From: an uncultured delta proteobacterium
GTDB lineage: Bacteria; Desulfobacterota; Binatia; Binatales; Binataceae
NCBI GenBank assembly: GCA_963814035.1
Contig: CAWFBH010000002.1
Span: forward strand, 189,165-253,164
Direction of reading: 5' to 3'
Length of the DNA: 64,000 bases
Shown here: one piece after another, positions 49,506 to 57,936 of the stretch
Numbering within the stretch: position 1 is the first letter of the stretch
Layout of the letters: each line of letters begins with the position of its first letter
Translations under genes and position numbers: made by a program
The notes under the pieces: generated by a model
The model's input: the letters and a program-made list of their open reading frames with translations, nothing else
The model's database searches: none
What the model was told of the DNA's origin: nothing

Positions 49506-52715
<3,210 letters not shown>

Positions 52716-52718
52716 TTC

Positions 52719-53936
52719 TTACGTCCGATCACTTTGAGTGTTGTGCGACGCGGTGGCAGCAGCCTCATCGGCAATCACGCGATCGAGGGATTCGGCGCCG
52801 TAGCGGGGAAACGCCTCGACCAGCTTGCGGAATCGCGCGAACAGATAGCCCGCATCATGCGGACCCGGCGACGCCTCCGGATGATACTGCACTGAGAAAA
52901 ACGGCACGCCGACGCCGCGCAGGCCTTCGACGGTGTTGTCGTTGAGGTTGACGTGCGAGAGCTCGGCGCGACTGCGCACCGAATCGGCATCGACCGCGAA
53001 GCCATGATTCTGCGAGGTGATTTCGACCTTGCTGGTGCGGAGGTCCTTGACCGGATGATTCGCGCCATGATGCCCGAAGTTCAATTTGTAGGTTTTTCCT
53101 CCCAGGGCGAGACCGAGAATCTGATGCCCGAGGCAAATCCCGAACACCGGCTTCTTGCCGAGGACGCCCTTCACCGCCTGGCGCGCGTAGGGCAGCGCGG
53201 CGGGATCGCCGGGACCGTTGGAGAGAAAAATCCCGTCGGGATTGTGCGCGAGGATTTCCTCGGCGGTAGAAGTCGCTGGCAGCACCTTCACCCGAAACCG
53301 CGTCGAGGTCAGCCGCCGCAGGATGTTGAGCTTGATGCCATAATCGAGCGCCACAATCAGTGGCGCATCGCGAAGCTCCTCGCGCAGGTTGCGATAGCCG
53401 CTGCCGAGCACCCAGTCGCCAAGGTCCCAGTCATAAGGCTCGCCGCATGAAACCTCGGTCACCAGATCCCGTCCGATGAGACCGGGCGACGCTTTTGCCT
53501 TGCGCACGACAGAGTCAGGATTCAAATCGATGCTGGAGATCACTGCTTCCTGCGCGCCGTGCAAGCGGATGTGGCGCACCAGCGCGCGAGTGTCGATGCC
53601 CTCGATGCCGACGACACCGGCGGCTTTCAGGTAGTCGCCGAGCGATTCCTCAGAGCGCCAGTTCGAAGGGCGCGGCAAATATTCCTTGACGATGAAACCC
53701 TCGACATAGACGCGCGATGACTCCGCGTCTTCGCGATTGATGCCGACGTTGCCGATTTCCGGATACGTCATGCACACCATCTGCCCTTTGTAGGACGGGT
53801 CGGTGAGCACTTCCTGGTAACCGGTCATCGCGGTGTTGAAGACAACCTCGCCGACCGCTTCGCCAATCGCGCCGAACGCGTGTCCGCGAAAGGTGCGGCC
53901 GTCGGCAAGCGCCAGTATCGCCTCCTGCTTCGCCAT
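52719..53936 (-). CDS. carA: carbamoyl-phosphate synthase small subunit (glutamine amidotransferase)
   Basis: 405 aa. GICLGHQ catalytic Cys motif. Confidence 0.9.
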
Positions 53937-55316
53937 CAGACGCGATGCGCTCCTCTTCCGTTGGATCTGGCGTCGTACACGATTTCACCTCCGACGATGG
54001 TCAAAACTGTTTTGCCTTTGAGCTGCATACCCGCGAATGGAGTGTTGCGACTCTTCGAGAGAAACCTCGCGGGCTCGACCGTCCAACCCAATTCAGGATC
54101 GATGACGGTGACATCCGCCGCGAGCCCATGCGAGAGCGTGCCCGCCTCCATCCGCAGTAAACGCGCAGGATTAGCGGACATCAATTCCACCAGCCTCCGC
54201 GGGGAGATTATTTTTTTGTGAACGAGGCCCATGGCGAGGCCGAGCGAGGTTTCCAATCCGATGATGCCGTTGGCCGCGCGCATGAAGGCGCTCGCCGCGC
54301 CATCGGGCAGATGTGGCGCCGCTCGCGCCCATTGGAAAGCATCCGGCAAGATGGATGAAATTCTTGGAGTCCGGATCATGTGGCGCGTGATCGGTCGCGA
54401 TCACGTCGATGGTGCCGTCGGCCATCGCCGCATGGAGCGTTTCGAGGTCGCGTTCGGTGCGCAACGGAGGGTTCATCTTGGCGTTGGGACCCCATTCGAG
54501 GATCGCGTGCTCCTCCAGCCAAAAATGATGCGGCGTCACTTCGCAGGTGACATGCGCGCCGTTGCTCCGCGCGTGGCGGACCAGTTCGACCGACTCGGCG
54601 CACGACAGATGCGCGATATGCACGGGAGCCTCGGTGCCGATGGCAAGCGCGAGATCGCGGCGGATGCGCGCGGTCTCGGCAGACGCGGAATAACCCTTCA
54701 CGCCGAGGCGCTTGGACACCTCGCCGGCATTGGCTGCACCCTCTTCAGAGAGATGGCGGTCTTCCTCGTGCAACGACACCGCGAAATTCAGGCGCGATAG
54801 TTCGTCCAGCGCGCGCGACAAAATCACCTGGTCATCGATAGGAATGCCATCATCCGAAAAGAGCCGCGCGCCGGCTTCAACCATCGCGGCGAAATCGACC
54901 AGCTCGGCGCCGTGCAACCCCTTCGTTACCGCGGAGACCGGAATGAGGCGGGTGGCGTGAACCTCGCGCGCGCGATCGAGCATGTAGCGCGTGATCTCGG
55001 GGGTGTCGTTGACCGGCGAGGTATTCGCCATCGCAGCGACGGCGGTGAGGCCTCCAGCGGCAGCTGCGCGCAGACCCGTAGCGATAGTTTCCTTCTGAGG
55101 AAATCCGGGATCGCGCAAATGCACATGAGGGTCGATGAGACCCGGCATCACCCACCAGCCGTTTGCATCGATGGTAGGCACGCCCTCCGCTGCTCGAAGC
55201 TGGCCGGGATCGGCAACCGCCTCGATGAGGCCATCGATTACGAGCACGTCAGCATCACCGTCGCGGTCGTTAGCCGGATCGATGACGCGCCCGCCGCTGA
55301 GCAAAAACGACTTCAC
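53936..55316 (-). CDS. pyrC: dihydroorotase (frameshift ~54375)
   Basis: [10 protein letters not shown] metal-binding start. The C-terminal part is in frame 53936..54379. Confidence 0.8.
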
Positions 55317-57262
55317 CGCGGCGCCTCCGCTTCCTTCATCGAATCGACCATCGAGTAGATCGTCACGCGATCGTGGGATTTATGATTGCCCTTGCCGTCA
55401 ACCAATCCGAGCCGAACCTGCACCCGTTCCGAACGCGAGGTTGGGATGTTCTTGCCGACGTAGTTGGGCCGAATCGGCACCGCGCGATGCCCGCGATCAA
55501 TAAGCACGGCCAGCTTCACCGCCGCCGGCCGGCCGCTGTGCCACAACATCTCCATCGCGCGCTGCACTGTCCATCCGCTGTTGAAAACGTCGTCAACCAG
55601 CACGATGACGCGGCCTTCGGTGGTGAACTGGTCGTCGCGGCCTTCGATGGCCCGAATCGGATCGCTGGCCGCATAAACGTCGATCAATGCAGTGGGAATT
55701 TTCACTCCGGTGCGTGCTTCGATCAGGTGACTGATGCGCATGCCGAGCAGCGCGCCGCGGCTGACCACGCCAACGATCGTGACCGAGCTGACGTCGGCGA
55801 GGTCCTTCAAGATTTGGCCGGCGAGCGATTCGACCGCCTGCTCGACCTCGTCGGCACTCATGATCTCGCGCTGCGGCCCGCGCTTGTAAGGCTCGTAGCC
55901 GGCCTCCTCGGCCTGCTTGACGCTGTCGAAAACGGCGAGGGTCCCTTCGGCGATCCAGTTCCGGACATAATCGGCAAGGCCTTCGTCGTAACGATAATAG
56001 CGATGCGAGCTGGCGTGGCCGACGAACTCAACCGGCAGCTCGCGCTCGCAATAATCGCAGCGTAAGAGCAGCGACGAGTCGGTGCTGGCGCGCGCGAGGC
56101 GAAAACGTGGCTTCAGATGGGCGCCCTCGAAGCGGGTGATGCAGTTGGCGTTGTTGCAGCGCGGCGCGCTCTCCGATTTAAAGCGCATTGGTGGGAGCGC
56201 CTTCGGAGTCGCGCGCTCAACGATCTCCGCGTTCTCCAACATCCACGCGATGAGCGCCATACGCACCGGCACACCGGCGGCGGCCTGCTCGAAATAAACC
56301 GCGCGCGGGTCGGCGTCGAGCTCGTAAGCGAGCTCGGTGGTGCGCGGCAGCGGATGCATCACCACGGCCTCGTGAGTGCGGCTGCCCTTGAGCGCCCGCG
56401 CGTCGAAGCGGACATATTCGCCGGCATCGGCGCTCTTGTTCTGCAGCCGCTCCTTCTGCAGTCGCGTCACATAGAACGCATCGAGAGCTTTGGGTGCCTG
56501 CCCGGCGGGAATTTTTTCCAGCGGCATGTCTGAAGTGAACAGCGCCATCTGATGGGGCCCGCGCGGAGTCAGATAGAGCGCGTCGAGGCCGCCCGCAACG
56601 GATTTGAGATCGTCCATCGATACGGTGGAAAAGCGGTACTGACTCTCGGACCGCACGCGTTCGAGCACATATTCGGGGACGTCCATGCCGGCGGTCGGCA
56701 CGGCGAGGATGTTCGCGCCGAAGCGCGCCAGGGCGTAAATCAATGAGTGGACGGTGCGTCCATATTTCAGATCGCCGCACAACGCGACCGTCAGTCCGCG
56801 CAGATGCCCTTTCTTCTTGCGCAGGATGTATAAGTCGCACAGCGTCTGGGTCGGATGCTCGCGGCTGCCGTCGCCCGCGTTGATGATCGGGCACGGTGCA
56901 TACTCGGCAGCCACTCGCGCGGCGCCATCGTGCGGATGGCGCATGACGATCAGGTCCGCATAGCCGCTGACGACGCGCACCGTATCCGCCAGGCTCTCGC
57001 CTTTCGCCGCGGAGCTGGCGTGCATATCCGCGGAGCTGATGACCGCGCCACCGAGGCGATGCATCGCGGATTCGAAGCTGAGGCGCGTGCGCGTCGACGG
57101 CTCATAGAAAAGCGTCGCCATGATGAGGCCGTCGGCGACCGTCAGGCGCTCGGATTTTTCCAGCGCGGTCGAAAAGCCATCGGCGAGCGTGAAGATGCGC
57201 TCAATCTCAGCGAGCCCGAGATCCTCGATCGACACCACGTCGTATTTCGGCAGCCGTGCCAT
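55313..57262 (-). CDS. pyrB: fusion protein: aspartate carbamoyltransferase catalytic chain (aa 1-~342) + PyrI-type zinc domain (aa ~365-415) + PyrR-like type-I PRTase domain (aa ~465-620)
   Basis: single uninterrupted 649-aa ORF. STRTR and HPLPR ATCase motifs. CNNANCITRFEGAHLKPRFRLARASTDSSLLLRCDYCE matches the PyrI C-terminal 4-Cys zinc domain. VIVLVDDVFNSGWT PRPP-binding motif paralogous to the adjacent pyrR. Confidence 0.8.
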   Translation of the reverse strand: MARLPKYDVVSIEDLGLAEIERIFTLADGFSTALEKSERLTVADGLIMATLFYEPSTRTRLSFESAMHRLGGAVISSADMHASSAAKGESLADTVRVVSGYADLIVMRHPHDGAARVAAEYAPCPIINAGDGSREHPTQTLCDLYILRKKKGHLRGLTVALCGDLKYGRTVHSLIYALARFGANILAVPTAGMDVPEYVLERVRSESQYRFSTVSMDDLKSVAGGLDALYLTPRGPHQMALFTSDMPLEKIPAGQAPKALDAFYVTRLQKERLQNKSADAGEYVRFDARALKGSRTHEAVVMHPLPRTTELAYELDADPRAVYFEQAAAGVPVRMALIAWMLENAEIVERATPKALPPMRFKSESAPRCNNANCITRFEGAHLKPRFRLARASTDSSLLLRCDYCERELPVEFVGHASSHRYYRYDEGLADYVRNWIAEGTLAVFDSVKQAEEAGYEPYKRGPQREIMSADEVEQAVESLAGQILKDLADVSSVTIVGVVSRGALLGMRISHLIEARTGVKIPTALIDVYAASDPIRAIEGRDDQFTTEGRVIVLVDDVFNSGWTVQRAMEMLWHSGRPAAVKLAVLIDRGHRAVPIRPNYVGKNIPTSRSERVQVRLGLVDGKGNHKSHDRVTIYSMVDSMKEAEAPR

Positions 57263-57263
57263 G

Positions 57264-57827
57264 CTACCTCGCTTCGCCTATCAGGACCCCGTCGAAGCCG
57301 TCGACTTCGCTTAGCTTGACGTAAACCCGCTGTCCTTTCGGAGTCGGAATATTCTTGCCGACGAAATCCGCGCGAATCGGCACCTCGCGCTCTCCACGAT
57401 CGACGAGCACCGCAAGCTGGATCGATTCCGGGCGCCCCAGGTCCGATATCGCGCCGAGGGCGGCTCGCACGGTACGCCCGGTGTAGAGCACGTCATCGAC
57501 GAGGACCACGCGCTTGCCATCGAGCGAGAACGCTATGTTCCGTCCGATCAGCCGCGGATCGCCCGGCGCGCCTTTTTTGTCATCGCGATAAGAAGAGATA
57601 TCGAGCGTGCCGACCGGGATCTTCGCCATGCCGACTTCACCGAGCGCTTTGATGAGACGCTCCGCGAGCGCCGCGCCGCGCCGCACCACGCCGATGAGTA
57701 CGAGGTTGTTCGCGCCGGTATTGCGCTCTGCGATCTCATGGGCGAGACGCTTGACCGATCTCGTCACGGTGGAAGCATCGAGCGCGACGGTGGTGGCTGG
57801 TGCGGTTGCCATCTTAAAGCTCACCAC
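57264..57827 (-). CDS. pyrR: bifunctional pyrimidine operon regulator / uracil phosphoribosyltransferase PyrR (start GTG 57827 or ATG 57812)
   Basis: ~180 aa. VVLVDDVLYTGRTVRAAL. Confidence 0.85.
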   Translation of the reverse strand: MVSFKMATAPATTVALDASTVTRSVKRLAHEIAERNTGANNLVLIGVVRRGAALAERLIKALGEVGMAKIPVGTLDISSYRDDKKGAPGDPRLIGRNIAFSLDGKRVVLVDDVLYTGRTVRAALGAISDLGRPESIQLAVLVDRGEREVPIRADFVGKNIPTPKGQRVYVKLSEVDGFDGVLIGEAR

Positions 57828-57834
57828 GCGGTCC

Positions 57835-57917
57835 GCAAAAAAATACCCGGCCGCAGAAACGGTCGGGCTGCATATTACACGAGTTCATCATCGTCCCTTC
57901 TCACCCTCGCAGGAGTG
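57835..57917 (-). promoter_or_regulatory. PyrR-responsive transcription attenuator in pyr operon leader: PyrR binding loop cacUCCUGCGAGGGUGAGAAGGgac, then hairpin GCCCGACCG-uuucug-CGGCCGGGU + U7
   Basis: the binding loop matches the ARUCCNGNGAGGYUNGNAAGG consensus of PyrR boxes. Terminator stem plus U-run is on the transcribed (minus) strand just upstream of pyrR. Confidence 0.7.
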
Positions 57918-57936
57918 AAGTTAAAGGCTACCGACT

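Follow-up and report, generated by a model that had tools for sequence, protein, structure and literature searches.

Aspartate transcarbamoylase (ATCase) is a textbook allosteric enzyme and a model system for ideas on allostery, and to our knowledge only a few solutions to its regulation are known: the PyrI regulatory chain, a dihydroorotase partner, the unregulated trimer and the effector-sensitive trimers of plants. The prokaryotic enzymes have been divided into complexes with dihydroorotase, assemblies of two trimers and regulatory dimers that are 'separated or fused', and bare trimers (PMC4581275). PyrBI of T. maritima, reported to be an allosteric protein in which the catalytic and regulatory chains are fused, is the only fused case that this review cites (Chen et al. 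1998, via PMC4581275). Here we describe a different fusion, encoded in a 64,000-nucleotide stretch of an uncultured Binataceae genome (GenBank assembly GCA_963814035.1, contig CAWFBH010000002.1, positions 189,165 to 253,164; hereafter the window), in which an ATCase catalytic chain is followed by a PyrI-type zinc domain and a phosphoribosyltransferase (PRTase) domain of the PyrR family. On balance, sequence comparisons lead us to favour the reading that this protein is an ATCase with a cis-tethered regulatory module, in which a PyrR-derived sensor of nucleotides or phosphoribosyl pyrophosphate (PRPP) would be anchored through the PyrI zinc domain.

The gene is a single uninterrupted open reading frame (ORF), as the preliminary description of this locus had claimed, and its product carries, in order, an ATCase catalytic chain, a spacer, a Cys4 zinc domain of the PyrI type, a connector and a PRTase domain of the PyrR family. 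Its parts, with positions in the window and in amino acids (aa) of the product, are as follows.

55313..57262, minus strand: pyrB* fusion gene, 649 aa plus stop, from the ORF translation with Pfam and NCBIfam matches.
56819..57241, minus strand: ATCase carbamoyl-phosphate domain, aa 8-148, PF02729, with STRTR, K87, R108 and H136/Q139.
56228..56818, minus strand: ATCase aspartate domain and C-terminal helix, aa 149-345, PF00185, with R169, R267/Q269 and HPLPR.
56486..56602, minus strand: family-specific 39-aa insertion in PyrB, aa 221-259, a gap relative to the M. jannaschii ATCase.
56165..56227, minus strand: variable spacer from the PyrB C-terminal helix to the zinc domain, aa 346-366, 21 aa.
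56015..56164, minus strand: PyrI-type Cys4 zinc domain, aa 367-416, with C369, C374, C402 and C405, and N371 and N373.
55868..56014, minus strand: connector, beta-alpha-beta-alpha, aa 417-465, with W436, F445 and KQAEExGYEPYKxGPQR.
55352..55867, minus strand: PyrR-family PRTase domain, aa 466-637, with the PRPP loop D557-D558-V559..G563.T565 and the DRGHR..P hood.

Four Pfam families matched the window fusion: OTCace_N at aa 8-148 (153.8 bits), OTCace in two separate stretches (72.1 bits), PyrI_C at aa 368-409 (33.5 bits, gathering score 23.4) and Pribosyltran at aa 468-603 (56.6 bits). The protein also passed the NCBIfam equivalog model for ATCase, TIGR00670, with 293.7 bits (cut-off 236.95), and the motifs STRTR (aa 56-60), HPLPR (303-307), CNNANC (369-374) and CDYC (402-405) are all present. 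The preliminary description had proposed a complete PyrB with STRTR and HPLPR, a Cys4 zinc domain of PyrI and a PyrR-type PRTase domain, and the hidden Markov model (HMM) searches of these three segments agree with it, the last assignment being supported in addition by solved PyrR structures (E of about 1e-30) and by the PyrR model NF003549, with a score just above its cut-off. Its count of three modules was too low: there are five, and the connector, like the insertion in PyrB, had been overlooked. The CTP/ATP-binding domain of PyrI is absent, as had been stated. The corresponding Pfam model PF01948 gave no match at E<=1 in the window fusion, only the 21-aa, non-conserved spacer precedes the zinc domain in the region of the PyrI N-terminal domain, and the whole-PyrI model TIGR00240 scored 26.6 bits against a cut-off of 148.55. 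The statement that a PyrR-fold domain sits in the place of the allosteric domain had the topology wrong, with the PRTase domain lying C-terminal of the zinc domain and the connector between them; 'in its place' holds only loosely, in a functional sense, because the sensor-like domain comes after the zinc domain, the reverse of PyrI. The model for fused PyrBI, NF009916, was failed as well (90 bits against a cut-off of 800), and none of the curated NCBIfam models covers this architecture.

Compared with the classical ATCase of E. coli and archaea, built of PyrB trimers and PyrI dimers, the fusion has the same catalytic subfamily, a Cys4 zinc domain with C-x-N-x-N-C and C-x-x-C, and a regulatory domain, here of predicted nucleotide-binding capacity, attached to that zinc domain; it differs in lacking the CTP/ATP domain of PyrI, in carrying a putative PRTase-fold sensor C-terminal of the zinc domain, and in its extra connector, its single polypeptide and the 39-aa PyrB insertion. 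PyrBI of the T. maritima type (NF009916, 525 aa) likewise unites catalytic and regulatory parts in one chain, but its PyrI is complete, with both the allosteric and the zinc domain, whereas the fusion has a PyrR-like domain instead. Class A ATCases (Pseudomonas/Aquifex, with an active or inactive dihydroorotase) resemble the fusion in having a partner other than PyrI (PMC4581275), but they belong to another catalytic subfamily (88 bits to 3d6n), their partner is a separate chain of dihydroorotase fold, and they have neither zinc domain nor PRTase. With PyrR itself, the C-terminal domain shares the fold and, by an NF003549 score just above the cut-off, the family, as well as the PRPP loop, GRP and DRGHR..P; unlike PyrR, it is not free-standing, has lost five conserved arginines and D148, has a genuine PyrR next door and would not be expected to act on RNA. 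No description of a PyrB-PyrR fusion or of a PyrR-like ATCase regulator was found in the literature searched or in the curated families, in keeping with the earlier impression that the architecture is undescribed.

The fusion is widespread among relatives of the window genome. A first protein search returned, among the matches listed, at least 120 clusters at 71-91% identity and 641-666 aa in length, all but two of them with all four Pfam domains, and a further search that started from a distant member added about 118 clusters at 42-50% identity to the window protein, with the same domains and lengths near 650 aa. An uninterrupted fusion is present in more than 240 protein clusters, from both short- and long-read assemblies. 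Scanning one genome per GTDB species identified 110 genomes with the fusion, and 80 loci were kept; nearly all are labelled as metagenome-assembled genomes (MAGs) of Binataceae, Binatia or a 'delta proteobacterium', Binataceae being placed under Candidatus Binatota in the NCBI taxonomy. Of these 80 loci, 68 have a single frame free of stops that runs from STRTR past HPLPR and the connector motif through the PRTase domain, three others are cut by contig ends, and the nine that are interrupted all come from long-read 'MFD' MAGs, several of which also have a broken carA, carB or pyrC. These nine loci with scattered frame breaks, and a frameshift in the pyrC gene next to the window fusion, could be taken to mean that a frameshift, a lost stop or a chimeric assembly joined pyrB to downstream genes. 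Against this stand the intact frames in 68 loci and in more than 240 clusters, with no stop or frameshift separating pyrB from the downstream domains, as well as the purifying selection on the junction regions described below; we rejected an origin by misassembly or frameshift on these comparative data and regard it as extremely improbable. The gene is thus genuine, as the preliminary description had argued, and the search for orthologous fusions bears this out. Members are annotated inconsistently, as 'ATCase catalytic subunit', 'phosphoribosyltransferase family protein' or 'pyrimidine operon attenuation protein', and IMG names some of them 'ATCase / pyrimidine operon attenuation protein/UPRTase', the last term standing for uracil phosphoribosyltransferase. 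The 90%-identity cluster of the window protein (172 members) also lists proteins of CarA length under the name 'carbamoyl-phosphate synthase small subunit', which looks like a clustering or bookkeeping oddity and not like biology.

Zinc-PRTase chains that stand alone were looked for and not found. When aa 345-649 were searched exhaustively with HMMER against 1.84 billion representatives, only 20 clusters were retrieved at E<1e-30, consisting of fusions in full length (P0125, P0129, P0148) and of pieces of such fusions; the matches ranked below them are ordinary PyrRs about 180 aa long. The short matches considered as stand-alone zinc-PRTase chains (for example P0121 and P0127) were rejected, being fragments that start within the PyrB C-terminal helix ('MALIAW...', 'MALLKF...'), and a profile search for stand-alone chains with the zinc domain and connector retrieved 13 fragments only. 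In a neighbour-joining tree, all fused domains except that of P0148 form one clade, apart from the monophyletic clade of Binatia PyrRs. Because the fused domains branch in an order parallel to that seen among the PyrRs encoded at the same loci, the tree argues for a single ancient fusion followed by vertical inheritance.

We then consider the modules in turn. Residue conservation was assessed in an alignment of 150 fusion homologues with identities down to about 42%. Fifteen ATCase active-site positions were checked, of which 14 are invariant (150/150) and the other, S83, is kept in 149 of 150 sequences with one S-to-T change. The invariant set includes S56, T57, R58, T59, K87, R108, H136 and Q139, as well as R169, R267, Q269 and HPLPR of the aspartate domain; matched by motif, their E. 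coli equivalents are S52, T53, R54, T55, K84, R105, H134, Q137, R167, R229 and Q231. Among solved chains, the PyrB core scored 270 bits with M. jannaschii, 266 with P. abyssi and about 220 with E. coli, against 119 bits with B. subtilis and 88 with Aquifex (3d6n), which belong to other subfamilies. Judged by these comparisons, the N-terminal 345 residues read as a catalytically competent ATCase chain of the E. coli/archaeal subfamily, the kind normally paired with PyrI.

The 39-aa insertion repeats an LDAxYxT strand directly before the aspartate-binding Arg and Gln, and its residues D227, A228 and Y230 are invariant in the fusion family. It splits the ATCase HMM match in two, and the AlphaFold2 (AF2) confidence is low at aa 236-246. 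The segment has the look of an ancient, partial tandem duplication. In sequence, it adjoins the region equivalent to the 240s loop of E. coli; in the E. coli enzyme the 240s loop touches the opposite trimer together with its regulatory chain, which makes the insertion a candidate for a new interface.

The spacer behind the catalytic chain is the least constrained part of the protein, with 0 of 22 columns (aa 346-367) conserved at >=95% and a predicted local distance difference test (pLDDT) score of about 60-69. The zinc domain aligns over the full PyrI C-terminal domain and matches PF02748, and C369, C374, C402 and C405 are invariant in the 150 homologues. The asparagines of its C-x-N-x-N-C motif align with N111r and N113r of E. 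coli, the first being invariant and the second conserved at >=90%; both belong to the loop turned towards the catalytic chains. By its sequence, the domain appears to derive from a PyrI that once worked with catalytic chains of this subfamily. For the connector, no convincing family or fold assignment was found; its mean identity to the window protein is 71%, compared with 57% each for the zinc and PRTase domains. Omega values (the ratio of nonsynonymous to synonymous substitution), estimated by the Nei-Gojobori method between the window and seven relatives, were 0.00-0.19 for the PyrB segments outside the insertion, 0.01-0.17 for the insertion, 0.02-0.21 for the zinc domain, 0.00-0.13 for the connector and 0.03-0.34 for the PRTase domain; the spacer (0.11-0.28 where the synonymous divergence was estimable) was ranked highest among the segments and is the sole relaxed one. 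All modules are under purifying selection, and the C-terminal 300 residues are predicted to be functional.

The PRTase domain is PyrR-like and has diverged in a particular way. At aa 464-624 it matched the PyrR model NF003549 with 139.9 bits (cut-off 138) and fell below the cut-offs of four other PyrR models, it is 38% identical to the neighbouring PyrR, and the solved structures that it matches best are PyrR proteins without exception (E 1e-30 to 1e-26). Column by column, the 150 fused domains were set against 57 free PyrRs, a position being called conserved when it is kept in >=80% of PyrRs and lost when the same residue is found in <30% of fusions. By these criteria PyrR has 51 conserved positions; the fusions keep 29 of them at >=80%, keep 9 in part (30-80%) and have lost 13. 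The kept positions include the whole PRPP loop (L-V-D-D-V..G.T), G-R-P and D-R-G-H-R..P; the lost ones are R15, R19, E26, R42, R73 (of YRDD), L108, R115, A116, A120, L143, D148, T156 and D170, five of which (R15, R19, R42, R73 and R115) are arginines. Thus R15 falls from 84% in PyrR to 10% in fusions, R19 from 88% to 14% and R73 of YRDD from 96% to 15%, the window sequence having AASD at the last motif, and D148 (89% in PyrR) is replaced by Asn in 85% of fusions. H22, present in 38 of the 57 PyrRs (67%), does not appear among the seven residues most often seen there in the fusions, and 128 of 150 fusions have Asp or Glu where PyrR has R27. The constraints that act on free PyrR in the first helix and the flexible loop are gone, and the phosphoribosyl-binding core is kept, a result that is independent of which residues contact RNA. 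As for those residues, Savacool and Switzer reportedly placed T18, R19, H22 and R27, and also R15, on the RNA-binding surface of B. subtilis PyrR in 2002. The non-conservation of the R15, R19 and E26 equivalents lends support to the earlier proposal that the fused copy is unlikely to be an RNA regulator. Binding of RNA by PyrR 'involves a basic concave' surface (PMC7430163); net charge did not discriminate fused domains from free PyrR domains. Some divergent members have retained more of PyrR: the fused domain keeps the TGRT PRPP loop, lost in Binataceae, at several deep-branching loci of the group L064-L080 (except L071 and L077), and P0129 and P0148, which lie outside that group, keep the (F/Y)RDD motif.

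The pattern of loss and retention bears on what the domain could do. If the zinc domain, connector and PRTase domain were purely architectural, a scaffold that joins two trimers or stabilizes one trimer without ligand control, the PRTase site would be a fossil; the loss of PyrR-specific residues, including the YRDD Arg and a PRPP-loop Arg that is Trp in Binataceae, would be expected, as would a connector better conserved than the PRTase domain in both mean identity and omega. A purely structural role would not, however, call for the core that binds the ligand in type I PRTases, and D557, D558, V559, G563, T565, R578, P579, R590, R593 and P596 are invariant in all 150 fusions, which counts against this explanation and leads us to consider it unlikely. 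The same core, with its acidic DD pair and PRPP loop, would suit a bifunctional enzyme, in which the C-terminal domain would be a working phosphoribosyltransferase for uracil or another base and would couple salvage to the first committed step of de novo synthesis; PyrR, to whose family the domain belongs, is a uracil phosphoribosyltransferase (PMC7430163), and the IMG name quoted above also points in this direction. But the YRDD Arg is found in only 15% of fusions and D148 has mostly become Asn, and an independent second catalyst would have no obvious use for a zinc docking domain and a conserved connector, so that a second enzymatic activity seems to us rather improbable.

We therefore return to the reading of an ATCase with a tethered, PyrR-derived regulatory module, which would probably represent an undescribed form of feedback control of ATCase. 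In the classical holoenzyme, the zinc domain is the piece by which the regulatory chain docks onto the catalytic trimer, and PyrR is known to sense UMP/UTP against GMP/GTP, as well as PRPP. Under this proposal, the zinc domain would dock on a catalytic chain in the classical manner, the PRTase domain would bind a 5-phosphoribosyl ligand, either a nucleotide or PRPP, and the connector, acting as a rigid coupling between the zinc domain and the PRTase sensor, would relay the signal. Ligand binding, through dimerization of the PyrR type and the connector-zinc relay, would then alter ATCase activity, join two trimers into a hexamer, or both. Free PyrR and its leader RNA would handle transcription attenuation, such that the pyrimidine supply would be sensed twice, at the RNA level and at the enzyme level, by paralogous domains. 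PyrR is a dimer whose RNA binding is promoted by UMP and UTP and opposed by GMP and GTP (PMC7430163), and we note that these opposite responses to uridine and guanine nucleotides parallel the logic of ATCase control, in which pyrimidines inhibit and purines activate. A more specific and distinctly tentative version, which we consider less likely than not, would make the fusion a third kind of ATCase regulatory subunit: the PyrR-derived domain would read the balance of uridine and guanine nucleotides (or PRPP), its dimers would bridge two trimers via the zinc domain, much as those of PyrI do, and the outcome would be a single-gene D3 hexamer that mimics (c3)2(r2)3 with different effectors and reversed domain order, the 39-aa insertion providing the new interface.

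Several observations weigh against a regulatory role of this kind. The domain order, zinc then sensor, is the reverse of the sensor-then-zinc order of PyrI, and for that reason the classical PyrI signal path cannot simply be copied. In the subclade of the window (Binataceae), the PRPP-loop Arg that is invariant in PyrR is Trp (31 of 150 sequences); because of this change and that of YRDD to AASD, ligand binding in Binataceae may differ, being altered or weakened. The fusion of the divergent L082 lineage (P0287, 1344-3314, from a MAG under the name Candidatus Methylomirabilis sp.) has no pyrR next to it. Finally, the AF2 model of the fusion (pLDDT 80.4, predicted template modelling score 0.69) is a model of the monomer only; a Foldseek search of the full model against the PDB matched ATCase catalytic chains only and was uninformative on domain packing.

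The genes around the fusion form a pyrimidine operon, whose other features in the window are the following.

57264..57827, minus strand: canonical pyrR, 187-aa ORF, NF003549 211.7 bits (cut-off 138).
57836..57931, minus strand: putative attenuator leader that would bind PyrR, with terminator hairpin and U-run, RF00515.
53936..55316, minus strand: pyrC (dihydroorotase), from ORFs and Pfam, with a GTG start that overlaps the fusion stop (GTGA).
49506..53936, minus strand: carA and carB (carbamoyl-phosphate synthetase), ORFs, downstream operon members.

R19, H22, R27, YRDD and TGRT are all present in the window PyrR. Its gene does not overlap that of the fusion, as had been thought, the junction consisting of TAG, one base and ATG; the overlap of the fusion with pyrC is real, but it reads GTGA with a GTG start and not ATGA. 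The RF00515 match directly upstream of pyrR is sub-threshold (36 bits against a cut-off of 54, E 0.074), and the same holds for matches of 35-50 bits at the same position in L001, L010, L027, L066, L071 and L081. With this recurrence, the separate canonical pyrR and its attenuator proposed in the preliminary description are retained. The Binatia leader may be a divergent RF00515 variant that the current model under-scores. In the window, pyrC is split into ORFs of 381 and 147 aa by a 1-nucleotide insertion near 54316, whereas it is intact (459 aa) in L001, and the break is probably a long-read indel error and not a sign of a pseudogene.

All 80 loci, and L081 as well, have the order pyrR, fusion, (pyrC), carA, carB, and a canonical pyrR lies directly upstream of the fusion wherever upstream sequence exists (L001-L081). 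The deep-branching loci L064-L080 (except L071 and L077) have no pyrC between the fusion and carA. The constant neighbourhood of a nearly abutting pyrR in essentially all loci, and the fact that PyrR works as a dimer, could suggest that the fused domain binds the pyr leader RNA or hetero-oligomerizes with free PyrR, sequestering or releasing it in the manner of a trigger enzyme, and the equivalents of R141, R146 (or K) and K152 are indeed kept. The first-helix positions conserved in PyrR (R19, H22, R27) are variable or acidic in the fusions, however, and L082 keeps the fusion with neither an adjacent pyrR nor an RF00515 match upstream of it; we hold such a link to RNA or PyrR to be quite improbable. 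L082 has a PIN-domain gene upstream on the other strand and a tetratricopeptide repeat protein between carA and carB.

Taken as an ATCase with a tethered PyrR-derived sensor, the fusion would be a new regulatory combination of known domains with a known enzyme, conserved across a bacterial class. The case is built on sequence inference from uncultured organisms, and a specialist in ATCase or allostery would find such a fusion surprising. In practical terms, it provides a clade marker and a means of correcting the annotation of hundreds of inconsistently named Binatia proteins. If the proposal is true, the fold of the PyrR regulator would be reused within one operon, acting once on RNA and once on the enzyme, and the Binatia would possess a natural enzyme that has kept the PyrI docking domain and exchanged its sensor for a PRTase fold, a ready-made experiment in the evolution of modular allostery.

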